Of a stretch of DNA of 64,000 bases, positions 37,345 to 49,287 are shown piece by piece. The stretch is from an uncultured virus (IMG/VR IMGVR_UViG_3300003320_000433) (taxonomy: Duplodnaviria; Heunggongvirae; Uroviricota; Caudoviricetes). The notes below the pieces were generated by a model. The model was not told the origin of the DNA and ran no database searches. It saw only the letters and a list, made by a program, of their open reading frames with translations. The stretch lies in IMG/VR virus record IMGVR_UViG_3300003320_000433; one strand, written 5' to 3'. The position numbers and the translations under genes were made by a program. Within the stretch, counting starts at the first letter, position 1, and each line of letters opens with the position of its first letter.

Positions 37345-37357
37345 CACCAAACTGCAG

Positions 37358-37790: not shown

Positions 37791-37817
37791 GAACAAGGAG
37801 CCCCAAGGAGGCCCAGG

Positions 37818-38048
37818 ATGACCAGCTACAAGATCTTCGAACTGACCGCCACCACCCCGAGCGGAACCGAGCGCTTCAAGATTCGCGCGACCTCCAGCGC
37901 TCAGGCCCAGGGCATCGCGGACGCGCAGATCGCAGATGCGGGTCGCGCCCCGGTCCGCACCTGGACGGTCAACGAGGTCCGCACCGCCTGCTTCAGCCAC
38001 GAGGGCTGCGACGGTGCCGACGACACGCACCGCGCGCTCGGCCTGTAA
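37818..38048 (+). CDS. hypothetical protein
   Basis: CCCCAAGGAGG RBS. Confidence 0.7.
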   Translation: MTSYKIFELTATTPSGTERFKIRATSSAQAQGIADAQIADAGRAPVRTWTVNEVRTACFSHEGCDGADDTHRALGL

Positions 38049-38075
38049 CAATCTTCAGAAAGTCGGCCTGCAGGG

Positions 38076-38117
38076 TAGCGCCTGCAGGCCGGCATGGAGT
38101 ATAGTTACTCCTGTAAG
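38076..38117 (+). promoter_or_regulatory. conserved phage promoter
   Basis: TAGCGC-18-TATAGT-7-GTAAG. Confidence 0.75.
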
Positions 38118-38138
38118 CAAGAGCCCCAAGGAGGCCAA

Positions 38139-38411
38139 GTGTACGACGCTGAGAACACCAACGAGGACCTGCTCAACAAGGTCCGCGCGACCATCGAGGA
38201 GCCCGCCACCCTGGAGGCGACCGGCCGAGTCCGTGGCCAGTGGCACGAGGTGGTCGAGACGCCGCTCCTGGGCGATGAGGCCTACGCCTACTGGGTCGCC
38301 GAGGACGATGTCAACGCCGTGGGCTACAAGCTGGTCGAGGTGGCCAGCAGCGATCCGGACGCGACCGACCTGGACTACGCCCACCTGACCCAGACCGACG
38401 GCGAGGGCTGA
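38139..38411 (+). CDS. hypothetical acidic protein
   Basis: CCCCAAGGAGG RBS, GTG start. Confidence 0.7.
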   Translation: MYDAENTNEDLLNKVRATIEEPATLEATGRVRGQWHEVVETPLLGDEAYAYWVAEDDVNAVGYKLVEVASSDPDATDLDYAHLTQTDGEG

Positions 38412-38418
38412 ACCCCGC

Positions 38419-38453
38419 GAGCCCCGCTTCTCCACACAGGAGGAGCGGGGCTC
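38419..38453 (+). terminator. hairpin terminator
   Basis: GAGCCCCGCTTCTCC...GGAGGAGCGGGGCTC. Confidence 0.65.
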
Positions 38454-38495
38454 CTGCATGTGCAGGCGGCTGTCTGCCGGCTCCAGGCGCACCGG

Positions 38496-38515
38496 CGCAT
38501 CCGTTAAAGCCCATC
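38496..38515 (+). repeat. 20-bp intergenic direct repeat, copy 2
   Basis: Identical to 36515-36534. Confidence 0.85.
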
Positions 38516-38576
38516 ACCACTCCAGAGGCCGGCAAATCAGCCTCTGCACAAATCCAAAGAAAGTTGCTGTGCAGAG

Positions 38577-38618
38577 TAGCCAACTCATGTCGACATGGGG
38601 TATAGTTACTCTCGTAAG
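38577..38618 (+). promoter_or_regulatory. conserved phage promoter
   Basis: TAGCCA-18-TATAGT-7-GTAAG. Confidence 0.75.
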
Positions 38619-38648
38619 GCAGGGAACGAAGCCCCGAGGAGGCACCCA

Positions 38649-39347
38649 ATGTTCAGCATCCGCTACAACCGAGCCACCAACCACATCGCTGGGATCGCCT
38701 GCAAGACCCAGAGCAACCAGACCGACGAGAACATCAACGAGACCGGCGTCGTGGCCTACTACGCGGAGAACGCCTGTGGCGTTCTGACCCGTGGCCGTCT
38801 GGCCCAGGGGCAGTCCTACGAGCGCCTGGAGGACGCGCTGGAGGCCGCTCGCAAGACCGGCGGTCGCAAGTGCTGCAAGACCTGCGAGAAGGCCGCGCTG
38901 GCCGCTCTGGAGGCGATCGTCAAGGCTGAGGCCGAGGCCAAGCCGGAGATCGTCGAGGGTGCCGAGCACCAGGTCGGCGACAAGCTGTACTTCCTGCCGG
39001 GCGAGCGTCCCCACGGCTACGTCTGCCCCGCCGGAGAGGTCGAGGTCGTCCGGGTGATCGACCACGGCGAGCCGACGCCGTACGCGCCCCGGTTCAGCTA
39101 CGTGGTCCAGGTGCCGGGCATCTCTGCGACGCGACAGGGCACGGACGCCAGCGAGCTGTACAAGATCGGCGAGGTGCCCAAGGACTACCGCTTCGAGTGG
39201 ACCTACCTGACGGCCATCTGCGGTGAATGCAAGGCCCAGGTCACCTACGCCAACACCAAGCTCGTCGAGGAGCCCATCCACCACGACGGCCCGGTCTACC
39301 CCGGCATGGCCACGGTGAAGCAGCGCCGAGTGTGCGCCCACCACTGA
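38649..39347 (+). CDS. hypothetical protein with Cys motifs
   Basis: CCCCGAGGAGG RBS; CKTC and CGEC. Confidence 0.75.
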   Translation: MFSIRYNRATNHIAGIACKTQSNQTDENINETGVVAYYAENACGVLTRGRLAQGQSYERLEDALEAARKTGGRKCCKTCEKAALAALEAIVKAEAEAKPEIVEGAEHQVGDKLYFLPGERPHGYVCPAGEVEVVRVIDHGEPTPYAPRFSYVVQVPGISATRQGTDASELYKIGEVPKDYRFEWTYLTAICGECKAQVTYANTKLVEEPIHHDGPVYPGMATVKQRRVCAHH

Positions 39348-39364
39348 CCCCAAGGAAGCCCGTA

Positions 39365-39395
39365 GAGGCCCTCTCCACAGCCGGAGAGGGCCTCT
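39365..39395 (+). terminator. hairpin terminator
   Basis: GAGGCCCTCTCC...GGAGAGGGCCTC. Confidence 0.65.
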
Positions 39396-39474
39396 CGGCT
39401 ACCCGCGTCCGGTCTGCTGCCGGCATGCCGGCAAACGGCCACCTACTGATTTTCAACAATCTTCCGGATGCAGG

Positions 39475-39515
39475 TTTCCATGCATGTGGAGATGGGGTAT
39501 AGTTCTTAGTGTAAG
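39475..39515 (+). promoter_or_regulatory. conserved phage promoter
   Basis: TTTCCA-17-TATAGT-7-GTAAG. Confidence 0.7.
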
Positions 39516-39557
39516 GCCGACCGCGAGGGTCGGCCCCGAGGCCCCAAGGAGGCCACG

Positions 39558-39875
39558 ATGGTCCACTCCATCGAGCACGAGAAGCACCAGGTCGCGATCC
39601 AGGTGTCGGTCCTGTCCTACGACCTCAACCGGCTCAACCCGGTCGTGCCGACCCTGATGGCCGAGAACACGCTGGACCAGCTCGTGGCCAAGCGGGACGA
39701 GCTGCTCAGCGCGATCGACGAGCAGGTCGCCCTGGACGGGTTCTACGAGGTTCCGGACCACATGGACGCGTCGTGGCTGGCCACGCTGCTCCAGACCGAG
39801 CTCGGCTCGTACGTGGATGCCGGCATGTACCGCGAGGTCAAGGCGATCATCCCGGTCGACCCCGGCACCGTCTGA
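39558..39875 (+). CDS. hypothetical protein
   Basis: CCCCAAGGAGG RBS. Confidence 0.75.
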   Translation: MVHSIEHEKHQVAIQVSVLSYDLNRLNPVVPTLMAENTLDQLVAKRDELLSAIDEQVALDGFYEVPDHMDASWLATLLQTELGSYVDAGMYREVKAIIPVDPGTV

Positions 39876-39884
39876 TCCATCCCA

Positions 39885-39917
39885 GGAGCCCCGGCTGCCC
39901 CGCGCAGCCGGGGCTCC
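39885..39917 (+). terminator. hairpin terminator
   Basis: GGAGCCCCGGCTGC...GCAGCCGGGGCTCC. Confidence 0.65.
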
Positions 39918-39959
39918 GCCCGTGTCCAAAAGAATCTTCGAGAAAAGTGCACAAACGGG

Positions 39960-40001
39960 TAGCGCGCCGATGTGCACATGGCGTAGAGTTCTTACTGTAA
40001 G
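39960..40001 (+). promoter_or_regulatory. conserved phage promoter
   Basis: TAGCGC-18-TAGAGT-7-GTAAG. Confidence 0.7.
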
Positions 40002-40031
40002 CGAGAGAGCAAGAGCCCCAAGGAGGCAGCC

Positions 40032-40373
40032 ATGAGCGAGAACATGATCTTCGGACACTTCGAGATCCTGGCGGACCTGGACACGTCCACCCGCGACTAC
40101 GACAGCGAGAGCTGCACGATGCTCCTGTGGAACACCGTCCTGGGCGGGCTGTTCCGGCTGGACGCGTCGGGGTGCACCTGCTGCGGGAACATGTACGACG
40201 ACATCAAGGTCGAGAACGCGGTGCTGGTCTCGGACCTGGAGGCGATGGCGCGTGAGGTCCACGAGGCGGTCGTGAGCTCGGACGAGCCCAACGTTCCCGC
40301 GCTGCGGGCGGGGCTGATCCGGGCGATGGAGCTCCTCGGGGTGACCCGCGAGCTCCCCGCGCTGGAGGGCTGA
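40032..40373 (+). CDS. hypothetical protein
   Basis: CCCCAAGGAGG RBS; SGCTC motif. Confidence 0.75.
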   Translation: MSENMIFGHFEILADLDTSTRDYDSESCTMLLWNTVLGGLFRLDASGCTCCGNMYDDIKVENAVLVSDLEAMAREVHEAVVSSDEPNVPALRAGLIRAMELLGVTRELPALEG

Positions 40374-40391
40374 GCGCAACTGCCGGCAACC

Positions 40392-40419
40392 GGCCCGCAT
40401 CCCTTCGGGGGTGCGGGCC
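40392..40419 (+). terminator. hairpin terminator with UUCG loop
   Basis: GGCCCGCATCCC-TTCG-GGGGTGCGGGCC. Confidence 0.65.
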
Positions 40420-40450
40420 TGAGGTGGTGAAAGAATCTTCCAAGTGCAGG

Positions 40451-40491
40451 TAGCCAAACACCTGCACATGGAGTATAGTAGTTCTCGTAAG
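40451..40491 (+). promoter_or_regulatory. conserved phage promoter
   Basis: TAGCCA-17-TATAGT-7-GTAAG. Confidence 0.75.
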
Positions 40492-40524
40492 GCCAACCGG
40501 AACGAAGCCCCAAGGAGGCTCCCG

Positions 40525-40858
40525 ATGATGAACTCCGCGAAGACCGCCGAGACCGTCGCCAAGATCGCCCAGTCCGCCGCGCAGACCCTGCTCACCGCTC
40601 AGGCCCGCGTCACNNNNNNNNNNNNNNNNNNNNNNNNNNNNNNNNNNNNNNNNNNNNNNNNNNNNNNNNNNNNNNNNNNNNNNNNNNNNNNNNNNNNNNN
40701 NNNNNNNNNNNNNNNNNNNGTGGCTGGAGGACGCCGAGGAGCAGCTGATCTTCAACTCCGCCCCCGGCTCCACCTCGCAGGTCCAGAACGAGATGGACAA
40801 GGCCGAGCGCAAGGCAATGCAGAACGCCTACAAGGCGCTGAGCCGCTGCAAGGCCTGA
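40525..40858 (+). CDS. hypothetical protein interrupted by an N gap
   Basis: MMNSAKTAE... before the gap and ...WLEDAEEQLIFN...RCKA* after it. Confidence 0.6.
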
Positions 40859-40874
40859 CCAACCGGCCCAACCC

Positions 40875-40907
40875 GGAGCCCCGTTCCCCAAGTGGGAGCG
40901 GGGCTCC
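40875..40907 (+). terminator. hairpin terminator
   Basis: GGAGCCCCGTTCCC...GGGAGCGGGGCTCC. Confidence 0.65.
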
Positions 40908-41148
40908 GCTGCGTTATGGGGTCGGCAAGGCCGCTACGTGGCCGCGTAACGGCTCCGCGCTGCGTGCGAGCCCCGTTGGGCCAGACTGAGGGCGTTCGGC
41001 CCGCTACGGGCCACGTAGGGCTTCCGCCCGGACGTAACGGCGAACCGGTCAGAGCGCCCCGGAGGGGCGAGTCCATGCCGGCTCCGCGCCCGATTCGACC
41101 CGATTCGTTCCGAGGCGCGGTGAATCGCCGTAGACGCCCAGCACTCAT

Positions 41149-41239
41149 GTCTACCTGGTCAAACAAAAGTTCTTGAAGAAAGTTCAAGAATGCCGGCAAG
41201 CCATCTACCAGGACATTCAGCATGTTTGACCAGGTAGAC
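41149..41239. repeat. perfect 17-bp inverted repeat upstream of the ncRNA-A promoter
   Basis: GTCTACCTGGTCAAACA (41149-41165) / TGTTTGACCAGGTAGAC (41223-41239). Confidence 0.8.
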
Positions 41240-41245
41240 GCGGTG

Positions 41246-41286
41246 TTGCCTTTCCTGTGGATATGGAGCATGATAGTTCCTGTAAG
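41246..41286 (+). promoter_or_regulatory. variant promoter driving ncRNA-A
   Basis: TTGCCT-17-CATGAT-7-GTAAG; same hexamers at 45596. Confidence 0.65.
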
Positions 41287-41647
41287 CGAGAGGGCGGCGA
41301 GCGAAGCTCCCGGGACGGCGACTCCAGCCGACGGTCGAGGCTCCACCCGAAGAACGCGAACACCGAGCAAGGCGGCCAGGCGACAGGTCGGTAGCAGCAA
41401 ATGCAGCGTCGGAGACAGGGCACCGACCCTCCACAAGAAAACGGCAGCGAAGGTAGTAGCGCGCAACTCTCCGGGGACGGACGCGCGGCAGGCTAGGGAG
41501 ACACGGAACCAGCCACCGCACGAGAGAACATCCGGAAGGTTGGCAAGGCGTGAGGGCGGAGCGAACGGGCGGAGCGGCTGGTAGGTCCCACCGACGCCCG
41601 AGTAACACAACAAGACGAAACAGCCCCGTCGGGAGACGCTGGCTGTC
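41282..41647 (+). ncRNA. putative structured ncRNA-A (~366 nt, ending at the hammerhead 1 cut)
   Basis: No RBS-led ORF; purine-rich; paralogous to 45632-46077 with compensatory changes. Confidence 0.6.
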
Positions 41648-41676
41648 GGCCGCTGAACGGCGGTCCTGAGGAGTCT
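41613..41676 (+). ncRNA. type II hammerhead ribozyme 1
   Basis: AGAC-GAAA-CAGCC..GGCTG-TC^(41647)-GGCCGCTG..CGGCGGTC-CTGAGGA-GTCT. Confidence 0.92.
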
Positions 41677-41687
41677 CTGGAGGAACG

Positions 41688-41888
41688 ATGTCCATGCGAA
41701 GCCGCAACACCGTGGCCGGTACGACCGACGCGGGGTTGCCCAAGCGGCGCATCAACGGCTCCAACCCGCCCAACAAGCCGGGCACAACGGCCGAGTCCCG
41801 CTCGACCGTGACGGACGGCTCGGTGCTGGAGGGTCCGGGCGATGTGGTCCAGGGTCCGACCAACGGCCCCGACCAGATCAACCGCTGA
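41688..41888 (+). CDS. hypothetical protein (66 aa)
   Basis: GGAGG RBS directly after hammerhead 1; hairpin follows the stop. Confidence 0.6.
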   Translation: MSMRSRNTVAGTTDAGLPKRRINGSNPPNKPGTTAESRSTVTDGSVLEGPGDVVQGPTNGPDQINR

Positions 41889-41959
41889 AGGAAGGCAGCC
41901 GGGGAGTCCAGCGCTCCCCGGCATGCCGGCAACAACTTTAAGAAACTTGCACTGCACAG

Positions 41960-42001
41960 TAGCCATGCCGGCTGCATGTGGAGTATAGTAGTTACTGTAA
42001 G
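41960..42001 (+). promoter_or_regulatory. conserved phage promoter
   Basis: TAGCCA-18-TATAGT-7-GTAAG. Confidence 0.75.
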
Positions 42002-42034
42002 GCCGACCGAACGAGAGTCCCCAAGGAGGACCCC

Positions 42035-42622
42035 ATGGCCCGCAACGAGAACAAGACCCCGAAGAACTACGAGGCGATCGCCGCCAAGGCTCCGACCCAG
42101 CTGCACCAGGACTTCGCCGAGTGGCTGTACCTGCAGACCGGCGTCCGCGTCGACCTGAAGACGGTCCAGCTGGTGACCGTCCTCCGGATGGACTTCCAGG
42201 CCAGCCCCGAGAACCAGGCCAAGCTGGCCGAGCGCAAGGCCAAGGCTGCGGCAGCCAAGAAGGCGTCGGCCGAGCGCAAGAAGGCCAAGCTGGAGAAGAT
42301 GCTGGCCGAGATCAAGGGCGAGACCAAGACCGAGAAGGCCGAGGAGCCTGAGGTCGAGGCTCCGGCCGAGCCGGGTCCGGTCCAGAAGCTGACCGTGGTC
42401 TACACAGGAACCGGCGAGCCCCAGGTCCACAAGTTCGGCTGCGCCGACCTGAAGAAGATGACCAAGGCCAAGGGCTTCTCCAAGGAGACCGCGCAGGTCC
42501 GCAGCCACACCGAGCTGACCCACTTGATCTACTCCGACATGATCGACTCCGGCGAGTCGAGCCTGGAGGACAACTACATGGCCTACGAGGCCAAGCCCTG
42601 CTGCCCCGCGCTGGACAGCTGA
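42035..42622 (+). CDS. KTVQL-family protein, paralog 1
   Basis: PTQLHQDFAEWL..TG..DLKTVQLVTVLRMDFQASPENQA. Confidence 0.8.
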   Translation: MARNENKTPKNYEAIAAKAPTQLHQDFAEWLYLQTGVRVDLKTVQLVTVLRMDFQASPENQAKLAERKAKAAAAKKASAERKKAKLEKMLAEIKGETKTEKAEEPEVEAPAEPGPVQKLTVVYTGTGEPQVHKFGCADLKKMTKAKGFSKETAQVRSHTELTHLIYSDMIDSGESSLEDNYMAYEAKPCCPALDS

Positions 42623-42628
42623 CCAACA

Positions 42629-42702
42629 GGACGAAACGGCCCGGACGCCTCAACCAGAGGCGGACGGGCCGTCTGCGGCTGAGTGGCCGTACTGACGAGT
42701 CC
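42629..42702 (+). ncRNA. type II hammerhead ribozyme 2
   Basis: GGAC-GAAA-CGGCCCG..CGGGCCG-TC^(42673)-TGCGGC..GCCGTA-CTGACGA-GTCC. Confidence 0.93.
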
Positions 42703-42711
42703 CCCAGGAGG

Positions 42712-43035
42712 ATGGTCATGGGTCTGGTTCCGCTGCCGAGCGACGACGAGGTCGTCAAGGCGTGGCGCAATCACGACAAGAACAACTCGCGGACTGCCAA
42801 GTACTTCGGCGTCAACGAGAGCACGATCCGCAAGGTCGTGCAGCGCGCAACTGGCCGGACGCCTCGGCCCTACAAGAGGCTCCCGCTGGGCGGTGCAGCG
42901 CTCTACGGGGCGTTCCTCAAGGAAGGCGGTGACTGCCACTCGGTAGGCCGCCTAGCGCGCTCCTACGGCGTCAAGCCGCAGTCTGTACGTGCGGCGCTCC
43001 GCCGCTATCTCGATCGGGTCGACCCGGTCAACTGA
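42712..43035 (+). CDS. helix-turn-helix DNA-binding protein
   Basis: NSRTAKYFGVNESTIRKVV and VGRLARSYGVKPQSVRAAL (two HTH-like motifs). Confidence 0.7.
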   Translation: MVMGLVPLPSDDEVVKAWRNHDKNNSRTAKYFGVNESTIRKVVQRATGRTPRPYKRLPLGGAALYGAFLKEGGDCHSVGRLARSYGVKPQSVRAALRRYLDRVDPVN

Positions 43036-43055
43036 GTCCCCAAGGAGGACACCCC

Positions 43056-43274
43056 ATGGACAACGACCGCAAGGCTGTGTACGACTACATCATGAACGCG
43101 GACGGCCTCATCAAGATGTCGACGTTCGCGATCTTCGACGGTGTGGTCAACAAGGACTACGTCGTCATCCACAGCGCACCGCCGCGTGTCGTGCGCGAGC
43201 TCGTCGGCTTCTGCAAGATGGTGTCGATGAGCGAGCAGGGCCTGCTGATCCCGCTGACCAAGAAGGAGAGCTAG
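43056..43274 (+). CDS. hypothetical protein
   Basis: GAGTCCCCAAGGAGG leader. Confidence 0.7.
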   Translation: MDNDRKAVYDYIMNADGLIKMSTFAIFDGVVNKDYVVIHSAPPRVVRELVGFCKMVSMSEQGLLIPLTKKES

Positions 43275-43438
43275 TGACACGGGGAACACCGATCCCGCAG
43301 GATCCGAGCGGAGCCCACGAGGCCGCTCCTCCGCCGGAGGCCGACCCGGTCGTCCAGGCGGAGGCACGGGGGCACAGCCCGGCGGATCAGGTCCAGCCGC
43401 CGGACGCGGACGCCATCGACCTCTACGGAGGCATCTGA
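43274..43438 (+). CDS. small hypothetical protein
   Basis: AAGGAG RBS; TAGTG coupling. Confidence 0.5.
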   Translation: MTRGTPIPQDPSGAHEAAPPPEADPVVQAEARGHSPADQVQPPDADAIDLYGGI

Positions 43439-43439
43439 C

Positions 43440-43520
43440 ATGTTCATCCTGGAGATCCTCGCCGAGACGATCGGCGAGTTCATCGGCGCTCTGTTCGGGC
43501 GCAGAAGGAGGCGCAAGTGA
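43440..43520 (+). CDS. 26-aa amphipathic peptide
   Basis: MFILEILAETIGEFIGALFGRRRRRK; GGAGG RBS. Confidence 0.5.
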   Translation: MFILEILAETIGEFIGALFGRRRRRK

Positions 43521-43693
43521 GCGGCGAGACACCGCGTGGCGTGACCGGGCCGGGATACGACGAGCACCAGGCCACGCCGCACAAGGACCACAACCACTCA
43601 GACCACCAGGTTCAGCCGGACAACCAGAACACCGGAACTGCCGGCACGACACATGGCGAGGGTGGACGCCAGCACACGGAGCACGCGCCATGA
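43517..43693 (+). CDS. small His-rich hypothetical protein
   Basis: AAGGAGG RBS; GTGA overlap. Confidence 0.5.
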   Translation: MSGETPRGVTGPGYDEHQATPHKDHNHSDHQVQPDNQNTGTAGTTHGEGGRQHTEHAP

Positions 43694-43833
43694 GTGCGCC
43701 CCAGGTCGTAGAGGTCGACGTCCCCGAGTGGGCCGTCGGCCTCCCTGGCGCACTGGAGCTCTATGCGGCAATCAAGGCTGAGTTCTCGTTCATGAGCGAC
43801 GACTGCATCTGGGAGCTCGTGCGCGACTGGTGA
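43690..43833 (+). CDS. small hypothetical protein
   Basis: ATGA overlap; stops 3 nt before hammerhead 3. Confidence 0.55.
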   Translation: MSAPQVVEVDVPEWAVGLPGALELYAAIKAEFSFMSDDCIWELVRDW

Positions 43834-43836
43834 CAA

Positions 43837-43889
43837 GGACGAAACCTCCGGAAGGAGGTCGGGTGCTGGATGGCACTCCTGATGAGTCC
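43837..43889 (+). ncRNA. type II hammerhead ribozyme 3
   Basis: GGAC-GAAA-CCTCC-GGAA-GGAGG-TC^(43860)-GGGTGC..GCACTC-CTGATGA-GTCC. Confidence 0.95.
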
Positions 43890-43903
43890 CCAAGGAGGAC
43901 ATC

Positions 43904-44137
43904 GTGTCCAGTAGCAGGATCAAGGCAGGGCTGGAGACCCTTGCGCCGTTCCAGGGCACACACATCCGGACCGACGACCGGTCCGAGTTCGTCAGGTTCC
44001 CCAACATGCTCATGGCTGCACAGTTCGTGAAGTACTTCCAGCTTGAGGAAGTCGCCTTCGCCTGTGTAGCGAGCGAGCACGCCGACAGGCGTAGGTTCGA
44101 CGTCCGTGTGGTCGTTGAGCTCGTACGTCGGCGCTGA
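43904..44137 (+). CDS. hypothetical protein
   Basis: CCAAGGAGG RBS fused to hammerhead 3. Confidence 0.65.
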   Translation: MSSSRIKAGLETLAPFQGTHIRTDDRSEFVRFPNMLMAAQFVKYFQLEEVAFACVASEHADRRRFDVRVVVELVRRR

Positions 44138-44156
44138 GGCCCGAAGGAGGCCCAAC

Positions 44157-44552
44157 ATGTACGACCGCAAGCATCGCATCCAGGTGGCGTTCGACGCCGA
44201 GACGGTCGGTGTCCCGCTGGACCCCGAGACGTTCGAGGACCACCTGGAATTCGCAACCGAGTACCAGCTGGCGATGTACCGGCTCGGGTCCAAGTCGAAG
44301 CGCGACGAGACCCGCCCGCACGTCCGCCACGGTCTGGCGTCGCGCTACTCTCTCATGGAGCTCCGCGCGCTGTTTCTGTTCGCCAACGCCGAGCACAAGG
44401 CCGAGATCGCCAAAGGCGGACGACTCAACGAGCTGGAGCGCGGAGAGCTCTGGGTGCAGATCGCCGACGACGGGCTGATCGAGTTCCCCGCCCGTGGCAC
44501 GGCTCCGGTTGCCACGGACAAGTCCATCACGATCAAGTACGACAACAACTAG
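44157..44552 (+). CDS. hypothetical protein
   Basis: AAGGAGG RBS. Confidence 0.7.
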   Translation: MYDRKHRIQVAFDAETVGVPLDPETFEDHLEFATEYQLAMYRLGSKSKRDETRPHVRHGLASRYSLMELRALFLFANAEHKAEIAKGGRLNELERGELWVQIADDGLIEFPARGTAPVATDKSITIKYDNN

Positions 44553-44582
44553 CATCACCAGTCCCCAAGGAGGACAAGCACA

Positions 44583-44930
44583 ATGGCTAAGCGCATCCAG
44601 GTTCGCCCCACGGTCGTCGAGGTGCTGTCGCACAACGTCGGCAAGGTCGTCACGATCAGCGACATCATGTCGCGTCTGCCCAAGGGAGCGCAGCCCGCTT
44701 CCGTCCGCAATGCCGTGCGCTGGCTCATGGACGAGGGCGGCATGTGCATCAGCGTCATCTCTGCCGGCAACAGCTGGCGTCTGGAGTCGCTGGACAACTC
44801 CGGCTTCAGCACCCGCGCCAACCCGGATGCCGGCAAGTCGCTGGTGTTCGAGCTCGTGGGCGAGAAGGAGGACGGCACCCGCGTTGTGCGCGACCCGGAC
44901 GGGAAGCTCTACGACGTAACGCCTCTCTAG
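44583..44930 (+). CDS. putative winged-helix protein
   Basis: GTCCCCAAGGAGG leader; VTISDIMSRL...SVRNAVRWL. Confidence 0.65.
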   Translation: MAKRIQVRPTVVEVLSHNVGKVVTISDIMSRLPKGAQPASVRNAVRWLMDEGGMCISVISAGNSWRLESLDNSGFSTRANPDAGKSLVFELVGEKEDGTRVVRDPDGKLYDVTPL

Positions 44931-45025
44931 CGGCCCTACGCGGCCACGTAACGAACGAACGCGCCCCGGTCAGGCACTCGCCCCGACCGGGGCGTTCCGA
45001 GCCCTTACACGAGCGAAGGACAGGC

Positions 45026-45427
45026 ATGAAGATCAGGAACGTGGCGATGGCCGGGGCAGTGCTGCTCGCGGTCGCTGCATGCGACGCCAATGCACCGGCC
45101 CAGAAGGCGGTCAGCGGCGACCGGGACGACGTCAAGAAGGTGGACGCCGTCAAGGAGAAGAGCCACAAGGAGCTGGCCAGCAGCACGACCTGCACCCGCA
45201 GAGTTGCCGGCAAGTGCAAGGCGACGAAGACGACCAAGACCTGGAAGAAGGTCGTCGACCAGGCCGCCAAGCCCGCGCTGTACTGCGTCGAGCTGGACAA
45301 CGTCAACGGCTCCGCCAAGGACGACGACGTGTGGTACACCACCACCAGCGCTGTCTACTGGAAGGCCGTGGCCAAGCACGAGGGCGATCGCATGAAGTTC
45401 ATGCCGCTCCACGGCGGCTGCTGGTAG
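45026..45427 (+). CDS. predicted lipoprotein
   Basis: MKIRNVAMAGAVLLAVAA-C signal with lipobox. Confidence 0.7.
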   Translation: MKIRNVAMAGAVLLAVAACDANAPAQKAVSGDRDDVKKVDAVKEKSHKELASSTTCTRRVAGKCKATKTTKTWKKVVDQAAKPALYCVELDNVNGSAKDDDVWYTTTSAVYWKAVAKHEGDRMKFMPLHGGCW

Positions 45428-45595
45428 GCCGCAGGCCGGGTGAATCGCCGTTGACGATGTGATTCGCCCGATTCGACCTGATACGCGTCGCACTCATGCC
45501 GGCCTGCGGAAACGTAGAAAGTCGAAAAAAGTTCCAAGAAGTTTGCACATGCCCCTACCTGCGCATTCACCGAGAATGACCAGGTAGGGGCTGAG

Positions 45596-45636
45596 TTGCC
45601 TCCGGCCCAGATCTGGCGCATGATTCTTCCTGTAAG
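45596..45636 (+). promoter_or_regulatory. variant promoter driving ncRNA-B
   Basis: TTGCCT-17-CATGAT-7-GTAAG. Confidence 0.65.
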
Positions 45637-46077
45637 CGAACGAGGGCAGGGAACGAAGCTCCCCAACTGGCCGGTCTGGCCGAGGGTAGAGGTTCCGCCC
45701 GAAGACCGCGAACCCGAGCAGGACAGCCAAGAGAGACGGCTGAGATCGCGCCCCGGAGACGGGCCGCTGACTCTAGACAGGAACCGGACTCCCCAAAACC
45801 GGTAGTTGCGAGCGAAGCGACTGGACTGGCCGAGGACGGGCAGCCGACTCCCACTGCGGGCGTCGGAAGCGCACACATCCGGTTGGTACTGAAAGCTGCT
45901 AGCGAGCGACGGACTCCACCTCTTCAAGCCTGGGTCAAGTGAGACACCCCGCTCGGGGCACCTCTGGCCAGGAAGTCGAAAGGTGGACGGTCTGCCGGCA
46001 ACCGCAACCCTCGAAGCGAGGAGATGCCGGCACGAACAACAAGGACGAAACGAGCCCGCTGGGAAGCGCTGCTCGTA
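45632..46077 (+). ncRNA. putative structured ncRNA-B (~446 nt, ending at the hammerhead 4 cut)
   Basis: No RBS-led ORF; paralogous to 41282-41647. Confidence 0.6.
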
Positions 46078-46106
46078 CGCCGGTGGATGCCGGTGCTGAG
46101 GAGTCC
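46043..46106 (+). ncRNA. type II hammerhead ribozyme 4
   Basis: GGAC-GAAA-CGAGC..GCTCG-TA^(46077)-CGCCGGT..GCCGGTG-CTGAGGA-GTCC. Confidence 0.92.
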
Positions 46107-46119
46107 CCAAGGAGGAACC

Positions 46120-46599
46120 ATGTCCGAGAACACCACCGCCAAGAAGACCTTCGCCGAGCGCGCCGCAGCGGAGCCCACCGAGCTCCACAAGCAGTTCGCG
46201 GCGTGGATCGAGGCGCAGACCGGGATCAAGCCCGACCTCAAGACCGTCCAGCTGGTCACGACCCTGCGGATGGACTTCCAGAAGTCGGACGAGAACCAGG
46301 CCGCGCTGAAGGAGCGCAAGGTCGCCGCCGAGAAGAAGGCGGCGGAGGCGCTGGCCCGGAAGCGGGCCAAGCTGGAGGCGGAGCTCGCCAAGCTCAACGG
46401 GAGCACGGCGAGCGAGGACAAGGCCGACGAGGCGAAGCCCGAGGAGCCCGCTGAGGCCCCGAAGGACGCCTCCGAGCCCACCGCTCAGGCGGAGGGCGAG
46501 AACGCCCCGGAGACGGCCACGGAGGCCGCCGCTGAGGCCAAGACGGACGCGCCCAAGCCGCGTGCCCGCCGCACTCGCCGGACCACCGGCACCAAGTAA
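46120..46599 (+). CDS. KTVQL-family protein, paralog 2
   Basis: PTELHKQFAAWI..TG..DLKTVQLVTTLRMDFQKSDENQA. Confidence 0.8.
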   Translation: MSENTTAKKTFAERAAAEPTELHKQFAAWIEAQTGIKPDLKTVQLVTTLRMDFQKSDENQAALKERKVAAEKKAAEALARKRAKLEAELAKLNGSTASEDKADEAKPEEPAEAPKDASEPTAQAEGENAPETATEAAAEAKTDAPKPRARRTRRTTGTK

Positions 46600-46661
46600 C
46601 ACCCCTGACGCCCCCGGTCGAGTGGCAGCCGCAGAGCACCTCGACCGGGGTGCATGGGTAA

Positions 46662-46725
46662 GGACGAAACCTAGGGCGGCTCGCCGCCCGATGGTCCGGC
46701 GCTGAACGGCGCTGCTGAGGAGTCC
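46662..46725 (+). ncRNA. type II hammerhead ribozyme 5
   Basis: GGAC-GAAA-CC..GGGCGGC/GCCGCCC..GG-TC^(46696)-CGGCGCTG..CGGCGCTG-CTGAGGA-GTCC. Confidence 0.88.
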
Positions 46726-46738
46726 CCAAGGAGGAACC

Positions 46739-47227
46739 ATGCTGGAAGCGTTCGCCCTGTACACCTGGTACGAAGAGGGCGAGGGCCGCGAGTTCGTGGC
46801 GGCGTTCGTGACGAGCCCCACGACCCCCGACCCGCACGGCCGTGCTCACGAGGTGATGCGGCGGATGTCGGCCGACGGAACGCGGGGTGACTGCTTCTCG
46901 GTCGAGAAGCTGGACATCAACATGAGCAACAAGGAGCTCGGCCTCAAGCCGACGATCGACGAGATCGAGACGGACGACTTCCTGGACGCTGTGTACCGCG
47001 AGCTCCTGGAGCATGGCGTCGTACAGCTTCCGCTCTGGATGAACCAGGCCTGGGTCAAGCACGAGATCAAGATGCGGTACAACGACTCCGTGGCACTGAC
47101 CGGGCGTCGGCTGGAGCTCGTGCCCAGGACCGCGCTGACCCGCTCAACGGACGCGGCCGAGTCTGAGGCGTATGATCGGGACGCAGCAGCCGAGGACGCC
47201 GGATTCGTAGAGAGCACCGACGCATGA
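46739..47227 (+). CDS. hypothetical protein
   Basis: CCAAGGAGG RBS fused to hammerhead 5. Confidence 0.75.
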   Translation: MLEAFALYTWYEEGEGREFVAAFVTSPTTPDPHGRAHEVMRRMSADGTRGDCFSVEKLDINMSNKELGLKPTIDEIETDDFLDAVYRELLEHGVVQLPLWMNQAWVKHEIKMRYNDSVALTGRRLELVPRTALTRSTDAAESEAYDRDAAAEDAGFVESTDA

Positions 47228-47319
47228 ACAAGCCTCAGCGCCCCGACCATTCGGGGCTGTGGTTCTGGTTATTAACCATCGCCCTGCTCGCGGCGTACAT
47301 TAAGTCGCAGCGGGGCTGA
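47224..47319 (+). CDS. 31-aa membrane peptide
   Basis: ATGA overlap; GLWFWLLTIALLAAYI. Confidence 0.5.
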   Translation: MNKPQRPDHSGLWFWLLTIALLAAYIKSQRG

Positions 47320-47331
47320 CTCTCCACCCCA

Positions 47332-47405
47332 GGTCGAAACGCTCGTGGCGCGACAGCCGGTCGTGCGCGAGCGTCCGCCGGTATGGTGCCGGTGCTGAAG
47401 AGACC
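47332..47405 (+). ncRNA. type II hammerhead ribozyme 6
   Basis: GGTC-GAAA-CGCTCG..CGAGCG-TC^(47375)-CGCCGGTA..TGCCGGTG-CTGAAGA-GACC. Confidence 0.92.
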
Positions 47406-47421
47406 GTGGAGGTCTGTGCAC

Positions 47422-47706
47422 ATGAAGTTGGACAAGCTGATCGAGGACCTGCTGGCCATCCAGGAGGAACTCCAGGAAGCTGGTGTGGACACGTCTGACA
47501 CGGACGTGCTTGCCGGCATCCAGCCCACGTATCCGCTCACCTCGGTCGTGGTCGGCGTTGTCTCGGGTGAGACGCTGGCTGACGAGTCCGAGAGCGAGCT
47601 CCGAGAGCCGGAGCGCAAGGCCGTCTGGGTCGCCACAGACCAGGTCGGCTCGTGGTCCAACTACAACCCCTACGCCCCGAAGGCGCTCTGGGAGGTGGCC
47701 AGGTGA
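47422..47706 (+). CDS. hypothetical acidic protein
   Basis: GGAGG RBS after hammerhead 6; MKLDKLIEDL...NPYAPKALWE. Confidence 0.75.
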   Translation: MKLDKLIEDLLAIQEELQEAGVDTSDTDVLAGIQPTYPLTSVVVGVVSGETLADESESELREPERKAVWVATDQVGSWSNYNPYAPKALWEVAR

Positions 47707-48020
47707 AACCGGAGATCAGCGTCACCCCGGCTCAGAAGGGGTCGAACTGCTACCTGTGCCACGAGACGGCTGCTGTGTGCTGCCTCCCGCGAGACCTGGA
47801 CGATCCTGACATCACGCCGGAGGCCAACGAGTGGTACGACATGGGCCTGCTCTCGTGCTGGGGCTGCATCCGCAAGATCCTCACCATGCTCATGTCCGAC
47901 CCCAAGCTCCCCGAGCGTGAGGCGGACGCGCTGGAGGAGGATGTGAGAGCGCTCCGACCCGAGCGTCTCGACGAGCTGGAACACAAGATCGACACGGCCA
48001 TCCAGGAACTGGAGAAGTGA
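47703..48020 (+). CDS. hypothetical Cys-motif protein
   Basis: GTGA overlap; CYLC and CWGC. Confidence 0.65.
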   Translation: MKPEISVTPAQKGSNCYLCHETAAVCCLPRDLDDPDITPEANEWYDMGLLSCWGCIRKILTMLMSDPKLPEREADALEEDVRALRPERLDELEHKIDTAIQELEK

Positions 48021-48175
48021 TGGCGAGCTTCACTAAGAACTGGTGGGCTAAGCATGACATGGACCGTGACGGCAAGGGCTGCTTCTTCATCGTCATGGTG
48101 ATAGCAGGAGCGCTCCTGTTCGTCGGCGTCGGACTCGGCATCATCGCCACGGTCGCAGTCGCCAAGCTGTTCTAA
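48020..48175 (+). CDS. small membrane protein
   Basis: TGATG coupling; long hydrophobic C-terminus. Confidence 0.55.
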   Translation: MASFTKNWWAKHDMDRDGKGCFFIVMVIAGALLFVGVGLGIIATVAVAKLF

Positions 48176-48186
48176 TCCTCAGCCTA

Positions 48187-48240
48187 GGACGAAACCTCCG
48201 TGAGGAGGTCCGCCGGTAAGGTACCGGTGCTGACGAGTCC
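48187..48240 (+). ncRNA. type II hammerhead ribozyme 7
   Basis: GGAC-GAAA-CCTCC-GTGA-GGAGG-TC^(48210)-CGCCGGTA..TACCGGTG-CTGACGA-GTCC. Confidence 0.95.
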
Positions 48241-48255
48241 CGAGGAGATTCGCGC

Positions 48256-49287
48256 ATGTCCGAGAGCATCACGAAGAGCAACCCCAAGCTGAAGACCATC
48301 CAGGCCCTGCTCGACAAGGCCAACCGGACCGAGAACCCGGCTGAGCGCGAGACCTTCCTGGAGAAGGCCGAGCAGCTCATGCAGAAGTACGCGATCGACG
48401 CGGCCATGCTGGCCGAGGCGAAGAGGATCGCGGGCGGAAAGCAGGAGATGCCGGAGAAGCGGATGACCACCTTCATGGCGGCCAACGACAAACTCGGCAA
48501 CCAGTGGTACAACCTGATCATCGCCGTGGCAGAGCACTACGACTGCCAGTTCTTCGGCTGGACCTCGGGCAATGGTTGGCTGGTCGGCTTCCCGTCGAAC
48601 ATGGACCTGGTCGAGATGGTCTACACGTCGCTGCAGCTGCAGGCTCTGCAGAAGCTCGACCCCAAGCCCGACAAGCGCAAGTCGTTCGACGAGAACGTCT
48701 ACATCCTGCACGAGGCTGGCATCAAGTGGCGGAACATCGCGCACCTGATGAACAAGGCGTATCACGAGGAGAAGGAGCTGGGTCGCCTGGAGCGTCTCGG
48801 CCTCCCCGAGGACACCGACACCTCCTGGTCCTTCCGCATCCCCGGTGCGGACAGCAGCTGGCAGGAGGTCCCCTGGGAGGTGGACGCTCAGGGCAAGGGC
48901 AAGAAGGACGGTGGCCGTCTGATCCGGGCGTGCAAGCGCTGGTGCTCCGAGATCGGAGAGCCGTACCGGGCCGTGCAGTCGCCGATCACCTTCCAGCGTT
49001 CCTACGCGCAGGGCTTCCTCAACGAGGTTCGCTACCGATTCGCCGCGCTGCGCAAGTATCGCGACGAGCAGGTCAAGGCGACCACGGGTGCTGAGCTGGT
49101 CCTGTTCGACCGCAACAAGCTCGTGCAGGACATGATGGACGAGCTCAAGCGGCTGATGGGGCACAAGGACGGCAAGGGTTACAGGCAGCGGATCGTGGGC
49201 GAGGCGTACGACCGTGGCCGACAGGACGGCCGCACGGCCGATATCGGGCAGGACCGCGTTGGTGGTCGCCGCAAGGAGATCTCATGA
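48256..49287 (+). CDS. DUF2786-like protein
   Basis: TIQALLDKA...ERETFLEKAEQLMQKYAID; FQRSYAQGF. Confidence 0.75.
   Translation: MSESITKSNPKLKTIQALLDKANRTENPAERETFLEKAEQLMQKYAIDAAMLAEAKRIAGGKQEMPEKRMTTFMAANDKLGNQWYNLIIAVAEHYDCQFFGWTSGNGWLVGFPSNMDLVEMVYTSLQLQALQKLDPKPDKRKSFDENVYILHEAGIKWRNIAHLMNKAYHEEKELGRLERLGLPEDTDTSWSFRIPGADSSWQEVPWEVDAQGKGKKDGGRLIRACKRWCSEIGEPYRAVQSPITFQRSYAQGFLNEVRYRFAALRKYRDEQVKATTGAELVLFDRNKLVQDMMDELKRLMGHKDGKGYRQRIVGEAYDRGRQDGRTADIGQDRVGGRRKEIS

Follow-up and report, generated by a model that had tools for sequence, protein, structure and literature searches.

Clustered type II hammerhead ribozymes run directly into ribosome-binding leaders in the early region of a relative of Streptomyces phages

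RESULTS

Seven hammerheads in the early region

Seven type II hammerhead ribozymes were found in the window, the 64,000-nucleotide stretch of viral DNA that was analyzed, and the last strand of each runs into a ribosome-binding leader. The overall best explanation, which we favor with modest confidence, is that these ribozymes cut the early RNA and so provide hairpin-capped, uniform leaders. A descriptor scan placed all of the copies on the plus strand between positions 41613 and 48240, within 6.6 kb; the same scan returned no hammerhead on the minus strand of the window. The seven copies are listed below with their predicted cleavage sites and with bit scores from our own covariance model and, where given, from the Rfam model RF02276.

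Hammerhead 1, 41613 to 41676, plus strand: type II, stem II AGAC/GUCU, predicted cleavage after C41647, tail CUGGAGGAACG extending to the ATG at 41688; own model (R1) 74.5 bits, RF02276 20.6 bits; the minimum free energy (MFE) fold is a three-way junction
Hammerhead 2, 42629 to 42702, plus strand: predicted cleavage after C42673, tail CCCAGGAGGAUGGUC up to the ATG at 42718; own model 78.5 bits, RF02276 22.1 bits; fold z-score -6.08
Hammerhead 3, 43837 to 43889, plus strand: predicted cleavage after C43860, stem III CCUCC-GGAA-GGAGG, GTG start codon at 43904; own model 74.5 bits, absent from the Rfam matches at an E value of ≤10; z-score -2.54
Hammerhead 4, 46043 to 46106, plus strand: triplet GUA, predicted cleavage after A46077, ATG at 46120; 80.8 bits
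Hammerhead 5, 46662 to 46725, plus strand: predicted cleavage after C46696, ATG at 46739; 67.9 bits
Hammerhead 6, 47332 to 47405, plus strand: stem II GGUC/GACC, predicted cleavage after C47375, tail GUGGAGG, ATG at 47422; own model 59.9 bits, RF02276 32.2 bits; an upstream element, UCUCCAC (47321 to 47327), is able to pair with the Shine-Dalgarno sequence
Hammerhead 7, 48187 to 48240, plus strand: predicted cleavage after C48210, tail CGAGGAG, ATG at 48256; own model 68.1 bits, RF02276 31.9 bits; an upstream element, UCCUC (48176 to 48180), is able to pair with GAGGA

A further candidate, CTGACGAGTCC at position 47579, was rejected as a ribozyme: it lies inside an open reading frame (ORF), with neither GAAA nor stems upstream.

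The window is approximately 81% identical to the Streptomyces phages Rooney and Gibson. GenBank records of Rooney, Gibson, Lizz, Dryad, Wentworth, and phiRKBJ001, all of them isolated and sequenced phages, name Streptomyces strains as hosts, and no ribozyme is annotated in the six GenBank stretches of relatives that we examined. Five whole related genomes contained 7, 8, 6, 7, and 6 hammerheads, each set lying within a single early-region stretch of about 7 kb. All seven copies in Rooney end 13 to 17 nt ahead of an annotated coding sequence start. One search of public sequencing runs, stored as contigs, gave matches for 6% of the words sampled from the window. In four such runs, the contigs (100 to 280 nt) came from relatives at 90 to 99% identity and ended or jumped at the repeated ribozyme sequence, which is the typical behavior of assembly graphs at repeats.

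Core, fold, and covariation

Judged by sequence and structure, the seven copies are almost certainly real ribozymes. Each carries CUGANGA, GAAA, and a GUC or GUA triplet at the right spacing, and the type II core (C3-U4-G5-A6-N7-G8-A9, G12-A13-A14, A15.1:U16.1, and a nucleotide other than G at position 17) is present throughout. N7 in hammerheads 1 to 7 is G, C, U, G, G, A, and C, respectively; position 17 is C in six copies and A in one. The MFE and centroid folds of all seven are hammerhead three-way junctions, with z-scores between -1.29 and -6.08. In every MFE fold, loops close stems I and III, and stem II is open, holding the 5′ and 3′ ends.

Covariation was evaluated in 36 copies from the window and five relatives (34 distinct rows). 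Pairing was found in 98.5% of cells of this alignment, compared to 37 to 45% with slid partners, and two-sided, compensatory changes occurred in 11 of the 16 pairs. The covariation score was 0.511 versus 0.137 in shuffles, none of 500 shuffles scoring as high. Stem II was GGAC/GUCC in 27 copies, AGAC/GUCU in 6, GAUC/GAUC in 2, and GGUC/GACC in 1. Stems I, II, and III all show strong compensatory change, which indicates that the fold of the ribozyme is itself under selection.

At its gathering score (37 bits), RF02276 gave no match in the window. This score is a property of the Rfam model and not of the molecule, and the copies were assessed with Rfam in E-value mode, the descriptor scan, and a covariance model built from this phage group. 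In E-value mode, four of the seven copies scored 20.6 to 32.2 bits, below the 37-bit gathering score, and the other three were not among the matches at an E value of ≤10. The low scores fit the longer stem II of these copies, which has 4 bp instead of the 2 bp of the RF02276 consensus, and their lack of the consensus tail.

A pseudoknot between loop I and the tail has been reported for a majority, though not all, of type II hammerheads (Perreault 2011, PMC3088659). Unlike the RF02276 type, the present group has no detectable pseudoknot of this kind: Watson-Crick runs joining loop I to the tail reached 1 to 2 bp at best in all 36 unique copies, and all 1,000 permutations reached the observed mean. 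Fast cleavage requires a tertiary contact, and none was found in the form of this pseudoknot. Pairing of CCA in the leader with UGG in loop I was rejected for the same reason, the observed pairing being no better than that of permuted loop-tail pairs. As a separate observation, 29 of 34 tails bearing UCAG in other phages pair back onto the core, compared to none of 36 in this group.

The counterpart of hammerhead 4 has C in place of U at core position 4 in all six GenBank relatives, with an unchanged layout. A U4-to-C change is expected from mutagenesis to weaken hammerhead catalysis. Since this copy retains the layout, efficient cutting may not be needed for the arrangement of ribozyme and leader.

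Junction of ribozyme and leader

All seven ribozymes lie on the coding strand, and the 3′ strand of stem II (GUCC) continues without interruption into the leader CCAAGGAGG. A reading made earlier from the sequence alone had described hammerheads 3, 4, and 5 as sharing one ending and the other four as having variants of it. Both statements were borne out: GAGTCC-CCAAGGAGG is identical in hammerheads 3, 4, and 5, and the ends of hammerheads 1, 2, 6, and 7 are GTCT-CTGGAGG, GTCC-CCCAGGAGG, GACC-GTGGAGG, and GTCC-CGAGGAG, respectively. That reading put the ribozyme end 9 to 16 nt ahead of the start codon. We obtained 11, 15, 14, 13, 13, 16, and 15 nt for hammerheads 1 to 7, so that the upper bound holds and the lower one becomes 11 nt. 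The Shine-Dalgarno sequence starts 2 to 4 nt past stem II.

Leaders of about 40 to 46 nt after cleavage, with a terminal hairpin, had also been proposed. In agreement, the leaders of the predicted 3′ products measure 40, 44, 43, 42, 42, 46, and 45 nt for hammerheads 1 to 7, and the first nucleotide of the product is predicted to be paired in the stem I hairpin. The product of hammerhead 3 may serve as an example and coincides exactly with the stretch singled out in the sequence-only reading.

Predicted 3′ product leader of hammerhead 3, 43861 to 43906, plus strand: 43-nt leader ahead of the GTG at 43904, running in the order 5′-OH, stem I hairpin, CUGAUGA, GUCC, CCAAGGAGG, ACAUC, GTG, with the Shine-Dalgarno sequence at 43894

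A layout of the type engineered in the RiboJ insulator is present at the sequence level, with leaders of 40 to 46 nt in which the ribosome site closely follows stem II.

To place these junctions in a wider context, we inspected 147 unique hammerheads from viral contigs, a sample gathered irrespective of their tails. A Shine-Dalgarno-like motif within 20 nt together with a start codon was present in 77 of them, compared to 6 of 146 upstream flanks and 221 of 2,940 shuffled tails (4 to 8%). About half of the viral-contig hammerheads of this subfamily therefore directly precede a ribosome site and start codon.

The leader motif without a ribozyme

The leader is not confined to ribozymes. Allowing up to two mismatches, the 14-mer AGTCCCCAAGGAGG occurs 14 times, versus 0.48 expected, and none of 100 shuffles reached 14. 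The shorter core word CTGATGAGTCC, also with up to two mismatches, is not enriched in the window (26 found versus 28.9 expected). Eight copies of the 14-mer are exact; five of these have no ribozyme, which confirms the earlier remark that the leader also stands alone, and three of the five lie just 3′ of promoter-like sites.

14-mer, 42016 to 42029, plus strand: exact copy without ribozyme, 27 nt past the second hexamer of a promoter-like site at 41960 to 41989
14-mer, 43035 to 43048, plus strand: exact copy without ribozyme, immediately after the stop codon of a helix-turn-helix gene; 12.3 bits
14-mer, 44560 to 44573, plus strand: exact copy without ribozyme, preceding the ATG at 44583
14-mer, 37000 to 37013, minus strand: exact copy without ribozyme, 3′ of a promoter-like TATAGT box on the minus strand
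14-mer, 37288 to 37301, minus strand: exact copy without ribozyme, 3′ of a promoter-like site on the minus strand at 37344 to 37316

Cryptic or degenerate hammerheads at these five leaders were considered and rejected. When scored by the group covariance model with filters off, the sites reached at most 13.1 bits, compared to 59.9 to 80.8 bits for the seven ribozymes, so no cryptic hammerhead is hidden there. Promoter-like sites are overrepresented (6 found versus 0.8 expected), as is their conserved motif (15 matches versus 2.0). They cluster densely between 37.3 and 42.0 kb; the hammerheads extend from 41.6 to 48.2 kb, and six of the seven lie beyond the last strong promoter site.

DISCUSSION

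Proposed mechanism

The ribozymes occupy the intergenic gaps of a rightward early-gene block. Each would fold on the long nascent early RNA and cut after GUC or GUA, leaving the upstream mRNA with the stem III hairpin and a 2′,3′-cyclic phosphate end. If the fragments then separate, the downstream mRNA would begin with a 5′-OH on a base already paired in the 7- to 8-bp stem I hairpin, followed by about 11 single-stranded bases and, 2 to 4 nt past the ribozyme, a strong Shine-Dalgarno sequence, AAGGAGG. By a cut ahead of each gene, every ribozyme-preceded gene would be given the same short, hairpin-capped leader, and the same leader motif also stands behind the phage's own promoter-like sites. 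That the ribozymes process a polycistronic early transcript in vivo is likely. A RiboJ-like gain in mRNA stability or in context-independent translation as the selected benefit is a more tentative proposal, for which we would put the case at somewhat less than even. It is weakened by the folding results, in which cleavage does not consistently expose the ribosome site.

The sequence-only reading had derived stabilization from a preference of RNase J for 5′-monophosphate ends. This premise conflicts with the glmS ribozyme, whose 5′-OH product is a substrate of RNase J1 according to the accounts of it in PMC3328962 and PMC11780869. Given that decay of a 5′-OH product, any protection in the phage would have to come from the flush 5′ hairpin and not from the hydroxyl.

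Alternative explanations

The ribozymes might act in the opposite sense, timing decay or setting stoichiometry, so that the rate of decay would differ among cistrons and might be raised. The 5′-OH end would pass the downstream piece to RNase J, which Streptomyces has, after breathing or trimming of the hairpin, and the expression time of early genes would be limited. Degradation of the glmS 5′-OH product by RNase J1 and trimming of 5′-OH ends in Bacillus subtilis, as described in PMC3328962 and PMC11780869, are in line with such a timer, and different stabilities are a standing hypothesis in a review (PMC6765202). We nevertheless consider it unlikely, as the paired first nucleotide in a GC-rich hairpin of 7 to 8 bp should impede a 5′ exonuclease and the strong Shine-Dalgarno sequence directly downstream speaks for high rather than curtailed expression. 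A translational switch, in which an upstream anti-Shine-Dalgarno element lengthens stem II in the uncut RNA and masks the ribosome site until cleavage frees it and turns translation on, appears less probable still. It would suit hammerhead 6 and two homologues, in which UCUCCAC, CCUCCGC, or CUCCAC lies 4 to 5 nt 5′ of stem II and is complementary to the GUGGAGG after it, and hammerhead 7 and its homologues, in which (U)CCUC(A) lies 5 to 7 nt upstream and is complementary to GAGGA. For hammerhead 6, the Shine-Dalgarno sequence is predicted to be unpaired with a probability of 0.17 before cleavage and 0.46 after it. Such a mask is, however, seen in two of the seven classes only, and complementarity between upstream sequence and tail over 42 copies averaged 5.26 versus 5.29 after permutation, with 310 of 500 permutations reaching the observed value. 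We therefore rejected a general mask and retained it for hammerheads 6 and 7 alone. By folding, the unpaired probability of the ribosome site is 0.23 to 0.72 in the products versus 0.17 to 0.45 in the precursors, with no consistent gain from cleavage; for hammerheads 1, 3, 4, and 5, it is the same or lower after predicted cleavage. A composite helix of 9 to 11 bp might, moreover, keep the fragments joined after cutting.

The shared ribozyme and leader could instead be mainly a recombination junction, in which a repeated 25 to 30 nt, comprising core, stem II strand, and Shine-Dalgarno leader, lets gene cassettes come, go, and swap. The leaders would then be identical chiefly through past exchange and less through selection for a uniform 5′ terminus. 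The genomes provide several traces of such exchange. Hammerhead 2 of the window combines stems I and III of the first with the tail and helix-turn-helix gene of the second of two adjacent copies in Rooney and Lizz, and compared to these phages, one gene and one ribozyme are absent from the window exactly between the shared cores. In relatives, hammerhead 3 is followed directly by a gene from which it is separated in the window by an extra ORF (43904 to 44137) flanked by leader copies; tblastn against 50,697 phage records gave no match for this ORF. Hammerhead 6 is present in only three of the seven genomes compared. As the main explanation, we find the junction rather doubtful: it accounts for the spread of the layout but not for retention of the ribozyme, whose fold is under selection as judged from the compensatory changes in its three stems, and the copies did not arise by recent duplication, given that stem III at one position is unrelated in sequence to stem III at the others. 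The junction and the cutting of early RNA into uniform leaders, which we favor, are mutually compatible. Joining of the 5′-OH and 2′,3′-cyclic phosphate ends into circular or spliced RNAs, by a host RtcB-type ligase or by the reverse hammerhead reaction, is exceedingly improbable. A gene between two ribozymes would have exactly these ends, and the stem II GGAC/GUCC, common to five of the seven copies in the window, could let the ends of one fragment rebuild a hybrid hammerhead. Spliced or circular products were, however, sought with none detected in the experiments recounted in Perreault 2011 (PMC3088659), and Pfam models found no RNA ligase, kinase, or phosphoesterase family in 66 window ORFs, picked by eye from 108 of at least 100 amino acids with a GC3 of at least 0.70.

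Comparison with known systems

The seven-hammerhead layout belongs to an already known type of phage element (Perreault 2011). The clusters described there (RF02276) share the core, the topology, and the presence of several copies in the same orientation between single genes or short blocks, and the role proposed for them is likewise the cutting of long phage RNA to gene-length mRNAs (PMC3088659). Clustered prophage hammerheads were reported in that work to cleave in vitro and in Escherichia coli, and processing of polycistronic RNA by ribozymes into transcripts differing in stability or translation efficiency is an idea already published (PMC3088659, PMC6765202). The present copies are as clustered, with 6 to 8 per whole related genome. 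They differ from the clusters in the account of Perreault 2011 in belonging to Streptomyces phages and in having as tail a phage-wide ribosome-binding leader that is common to promoter-driven genes. In halovirus HF1/HF2, a hammerhead lies 13 nt before the helicase start, and the major early transcript has its mapped 5′ end at the cleavage site (PMC3088659). The position in the early region within about 13 nt of a start codon is similar, but the HF1/HF2 element is described as a single, variant, salt-dependent ribozyme of an archaeal virus, compared to seven copies with a canonical core in a bacterial virus.

The likeness to RiboJ drawn in the sequence-only reading extends to the hammerhead placed directly before the ribosome site; it does not include a spacer hairpin. 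RiboJ consists of the sTRSV hammerhead and a 23-nt hairpin, and its cleavage strips off upstream RNA and leaves a uniform hairpin-bearing leader (PMC6206723), as is predicted here. According to the same source, it raised transcript about 2-fold and protein 2- to 10-fold in E. coli, and its added hairpin is thought to expose the ribosome site. The phage copies have no such hairpin and no room for one in the 2 to 4 nt between stem II and the Shine-Dalgarno sequence. RiboJ is, furthermore, engineered and stands behind a promoter, whereas the phage copies lie between genes. With glmS, the phage elements share self-cleavage in a 5′ leader that yields a downstream mRNA with a 5′-OH (predicted here). 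In glmS, which is ligand controlled unlike the phage copies, the 5′-OH end triggers decay and turns the gene off (Collins et al. 2007, as related in PMC3328962 and PMC11780869). With the 5′-OH nucleotide buried in a hairpin and a strong ribosome site after it, the outcome in the phage may be the opposite.

Significance

A literature search covering sources other than subscription journals turned up no publication on hammerheads in phages of Streptomyces or in actinobacteriophages. As the Rfam type II model misses this subfamily at the gathering score, such ribozymes go unannotated in actinobacteriophage genomes. The role of phage hammerheads has been a standing question since their discovery in 2011, and a 2019 review asks for work that defines their purpose (PMC6765202). 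With 6 to 8 ribozymes per genome and isolated phages, the Rooney group offers a practical test bed, including natural variants such as the U4-to-C core at one position, the presence or absence of hammerhead 6, and the gain or loss of a gene-and-ribozyme cassette.

A broader proposal, speculative and in our estimate somewhat unlikely, is that two interchangeable devices, a dedicated promoter or a dedicated hammerhead, give almost all early mRNAs a standard 5′ end, both feeding the portable leader (G)AGUCCCCAAGGAGG. As natural insulators, the ribozymes would then free the translation and lifetime of each gene from the influence of its neighbors, in a module that doubles as a junction for cassette exchange. 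Proof of this proposal would give clustered phage hammerheads their first demonstrated biological function and would supply RiboJ with a counterpart in nature.

Gene layout and hammerhead elements

The region from 41500 to 48400 aligns to eight Streptomyces phages (Rooney, Gibson, Lizz, ShakeNBake, PHTowN, phiRKBJ001, Dryad, and Wentworth) with identities of 80.5 to 83.9%, covering 47 to 77% of its length. Its position within the gene layout of the window is as follows:

~11-28 kb, minus strand: tail, capsid, and portal genes (Pfam)
33-35.6 kb: D5-type primase (Pfam)
37.4-50 kb, plus strand: block of small, largely unnamed genes that contains the leader at 43861-43906
From 50.5 kb onward, plus strand: DNA-metabolism genes (Pfam)

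Both strands of the window were scanned with a descriptor of core and stem pattern, and seven type II hammerheads were found, all on the plus strand. Their predicted 3' product leaders range from 40 to 46 nt:

41613-41676, plus strand: hammerhead 1, leader of 40 nt
42629-42702, plus strand: hammerhead 2, leader of 44 nt
43837-43889, plus strand: hammerhead 3, leader of 43 nt
46043-46106, plus strand: hammerhead 4, leader of 42 nt
46662-46725, plus strand: hammerhead 5, leader of 42 nt
47332-47405, plus strand: hammerhead 6, leader of 46 nt
48187-48240, plus strand: hammerhead 7, leader of 45 nt

Hammerhead 3 and its leader read GGAC-GAAAC-CUCC GGAA GGAG-GUC^-GGGUGC UGGAUG GCACUC-CUGAUGA-GUCC-CCAAGGAGG-ACAUC-GUG. 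The topology is type II: loops close stems I and III, and stem II is left open. The three-way junction was both the minimum-energy and the centroid structure for all seven elements. Hammerheads 3, 4, and 5 end identically, in GAGUCC-CCAAGGAGG, the other four carry variants of this ending, and the start codon lies 11 to 16 nt past the end of stem II. The interval 43861-43906 corresponds to exactly one predicted product leader plus its GTG.

Comparative evidence for the ribozymes

No Rfam match reached the gathering score in the window. In E-value mode, four of the seven hammerheads were listed for RF02276 at 32.2, 31.9, 22.1, and 20.6 bits (cut-off, 37), and the remaining three, including hammerhead 3, were unlisted. 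The stretches of six GenBank relatives (Rooney, Gibson, Lizz, phiRKBJ001, Dryad, and Wentworth) carry CDS features only and no ribozyme annotation; the descriptor found 35 further copies in them (6, 6, 7, 5, 6, and 5). An alignment of 36 copies (34 distinct rows) was built from the 7 window elements and 29 copies from five relatives, Gibson being omitted due to its near-identity to Rooney. Standard pairs occupied 98.5% of its cells, compared to 37 to 45% when partners were slid by 1 to 3 columns, and 11 of 16 pairs showed changes on both sides. The covariation score was 0.511 versus 0.137 for shuffled alignments, with none of 500 shuffles attaining the observed value, and stem II occurs in four covarying forms. 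In the first three to four pairs of stems I and III, pairing is partly enforced by the descriptor itself; pairs 5 to 7 of stem I, which are free of this requirement, are canonical in 36/36 copies. Despite the lack of an Rfam call, this is strong comparative evidence that the ribozymes are genuine.

In the whole genomes of five relatives, a model derived from the alignment detected 7, 8, 6, 7, and 6 copies, all on a single strand and between ~52.7 and 59.7 kb of the 68- to 70-kb records. One extra copy per genome, missed by the descriptor, is the equivalent of hammerhead 4. In 6/6 GenBank relatives, this equivalent has CCGAUGA or CCGAAGA instead of CUGANGA, a U4-to-C core change.

Hammerhead 4 equivalents with the U4-to-C change in the stretches of the six relatives (L001, Rooney; L003, Lizz)
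L001:7476-7551
L002:7109-7184
L003:7814-7889
L004:7014-7089
L005:7291-7366
L006:7359-7434

Such a copy may be a naturally attenuated ribozyme. These copies retain all stems and an unchanged leader, with a compensatory stem III change in phiRKBJ001. The canonical U is found at this core position in the window and in several viral contigs.

A leader common to promoters and ribozymes

The leader 14-mer AGTCCCCAAGGAGG occurs 14 times in the window with up to 2 mismatches (0.48 expected). Five exact copies have no ribozyme; they scored at most 13.1 bits with the covariance model run with filters off, compared to 59.9 to 80.8 bits for the seven ribozymes. The elements, shared ending and variants, leader lengths, and ribozyme-free leaders described by the sequence-only reading were borne out in all particulars. 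Seven ribozyme-free leaders (three of the five exact copies and four with 1 to 2 mismatches) lie 5 to ~30 nt past promoter-like sites. Sigma-70-like sites (TAGCCA/TTTCCA, 17 to 18 nt, TATAGT) number 6 versus 0.8 expected, and the conserved extended promoter-like motif GTATAGTNNTNNNNGTAAG has 15 matches versus 2.0 expected, located as follows:

37018-42001, both strands: array of promoter-like sites bearing GTATAGTNNTNNNNGTAAG
4768-4786, minus strand: further promoter-like site

Between 37380 and 41983, promoter-like sites on the plus strand are spaced roughly 0.5 kb apart. The hammerheads span 41613-48240, six of the seven lying past 41983. It seems that early genes receive either a promoter or a ribozyme of their own, with one common ribosome-binding leader in both cases. 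This arrangement, which we infer from the layout, is consistent with the earlier idea of a standard leader.

A divergent promoter-like pair is located at 37304-37398, and short inverted repeats with TGCAG or CTGCA, possible operator sites, surround -35 regions.

Tail pairing and exposure of the ribosome-binding site

In most type II hammerheads, according to the sections of Perreault et al. that treat them (PMC3088659), loop I pairs with the bases directly after stem II to form a pseudoknot of 4 bp or more. Such a pseudoknot would give the leader a structural role. It was unsupported here: the longest Watson-Crick run was 1 to 2 bp in 36/36 unique copies, not above that for permuted loops and tails, and the pairing of 148 copies in a wider set did not exceed permutation either. 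The tail therefore appears free, which would fit a role in initiating translation.

Partition-function folding gave a mean unpaired probability of the Shine-Dalgarno sequence of 0.23 to 0.72 in products versus 0.17 to 0.45 in precursors that included 60 nt of upstream sequence; the shift was not consistent in direction. Only hammerheads 6 and 7 have an upstream anti-Shine-Dalgarno sequence that extends stem II: UCUCCAC at 47321-47327 for hammerhead 6 (CCUCCGC in Lizz, CUCCAC in Dryad) and UCCUC at 48176-48180 for hammerhead 7, also found in its homologues. Across 42 copies, upstream-tail complementarity equaled the permuted expectation.

A different tail feature was seen in unrelated phage hammerheads from viral contigs (loci L130-L274). 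Among the matches listed, 34 of 148 tails have UCAG within 14 nt after stem II, and the preceding base complements core N7 in 29 of these 34 (A/U7, 22; G/C7, 7), so that the tail can refold onto core CUGAN. This fold-back feature is present in 0/36 copies of the present phage group.

Generality of the layout

To establish whether adjacency to a ribosome-binding site is phage specific, viral contigs were scanned with a pattern that fixed the core and stem II only and left the tail free. At least 145 loci with at least 165 matches were obtained, at least 160 of which have stems I and III of 3 bp or more and at least 147 of which are unique. Among the matches listed, all confined to the stem II form GGAC/GUCC, 77 of 147 unique hammerheads have a Shine-Dalgarno-like motif that starts no more than 20 nt past stem II and a start codon 3 to 12 nt after that motif, versus 6/146 for the 45-nt upstream flanks and 221/2940 for shuffled tails. 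An earlier scan requiring GGAGG after the ribozyme returned at least 123 loci, with a complete hammerhead in 30 among the matches listed, including copies on clearly unrelated, AT-rich contigs. Judged from these sequence counts, the layout is a general trait of the hammerhead subfamily, and the present phage group lies at the tight end of its spacing range. The subfamily is far commoner than the loci from both scans.

Clusters of three to five copies within a few kilobases are present on many viral contigs (e.g., L130-L133, L140-L141, and L197-L200).

Gain and loss of cassettes

Hammerhead 2 with its tail (42629-42718) is a chimera of two adjacent Rooney/Lizz copies (L001:4145-4595, L003:4146-4594). 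Stems I and III derive from the first copy and the tail and downstream gene from the second; relative to Rooney and Lizz, a gene and a ribozyme are absent from between the shared cores. From the aligned sequences, we interpret this difference as loss or gain of a gene and ribozyme via exchange inside the shared core. The arrangement of the window is also that of phiRKBJ001 and Wentworth. Immediately after hammerhead 3, the window contains an extra 77-amino-acid ORF (43904-44137), for which tblastn against 50,697 phage records gave no match; in the relatives, the hammerhead 3 equivalent directly adjoins the gene whose window counterpart begins at 44158. This insert has a leader copy on either side (43885-43898 and 44137-44150), and hammerhead 6 occurs in just three of the seven compared genomes. 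Together, the chimera, the bounded insert, and the patchy hammerhead 6 indicate that the repeats also act as junctions at which cassettes are gained and lost. Such exchange may partly explain the likeness of the leaders.

Directly upstream of hammerhead 4, ~600 nt (45430-46040) lack a convincing ORF and contain a weak promoter-like site (45618-45636), an 18-nt inverted repeat (45551-45591), and four GACUCCCC-like words. The relatives have an unannotated gap of ~700 nt at the matching position, and the segment may be a long structured leader or noncoding RNA. A 31-amino-acid ORF with a hydrophobic core (MNKPQRPDHSGLWFWLLTIALLAAYIKSQRG, 47224-47319) overlaps the previous stop codon at ATGA and stops 12 nt ahead of hammerhead 6. 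By-eye reading of the nucleotide alignment shows the peptide kept in Lizz, where it is unannotated, and in Dryad.

Predicted products and relation to known systems

After cleavage, the 3' end of the upstream mRNA would consist of the stem III hairpin, two further bases, and a cyclic phosphate, and the downstream mRNA would begin with a 5'-OH base already paired in a 7- to 8-bp GC-rich hairpin, followed by ~11 unpaired bases and the Shine-Dalgarno sequence. From work on 5'-terminal stem-loops in Escherichia coli and Bacillus subtilis, both product ends are expected to resist exonucleases. The preference of RNase J for 5'-monophosphate ends, on which the stability argument had partly relied, needs correction, since RNase J1 takes the 5'-OH product of the glmS ribozyme as a substrate, as described in parts of PMC3328962 and PMC11780869. 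Should the products be stable here, the hairpin rather than the hydroxyl would likely be the reason.

The proposed likeness to RiboJ holds as a fair functional analogy. As outlined in part of PMC6206723, RiboJ consists of the 75-nt sTRSV hammerhead and a 23-nt hairpin and, in E. coli, raises transcript ~2-fold and protein 2- to 10-fold; the window hammerheads, in contrast, lack the spacer hairpin. Closer precedents appear in sections of Perreault et al. (PMC3088659), where prophage single genes are flanked by multiple hammerheads, processing into gene-length mRNAs is proposed, cleavage is demonstrated in vitro and in E. coli, and a halovirus hammerhead lies 13 nt ahead of a start codon. A 2019 review restates the hypothesis that processing yields transcripts differing in stability or translation efficiency (PMC6765202). 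The seven hammerheads are new, unannotated members of an already known kind, and an insulator function would be a reasonable variant of a published hypothesis. Overall, the earlier interpretation is partly supported. The chief value of this phage group is that it offers a tractable system in which to test the processing/insulator hypothesis.
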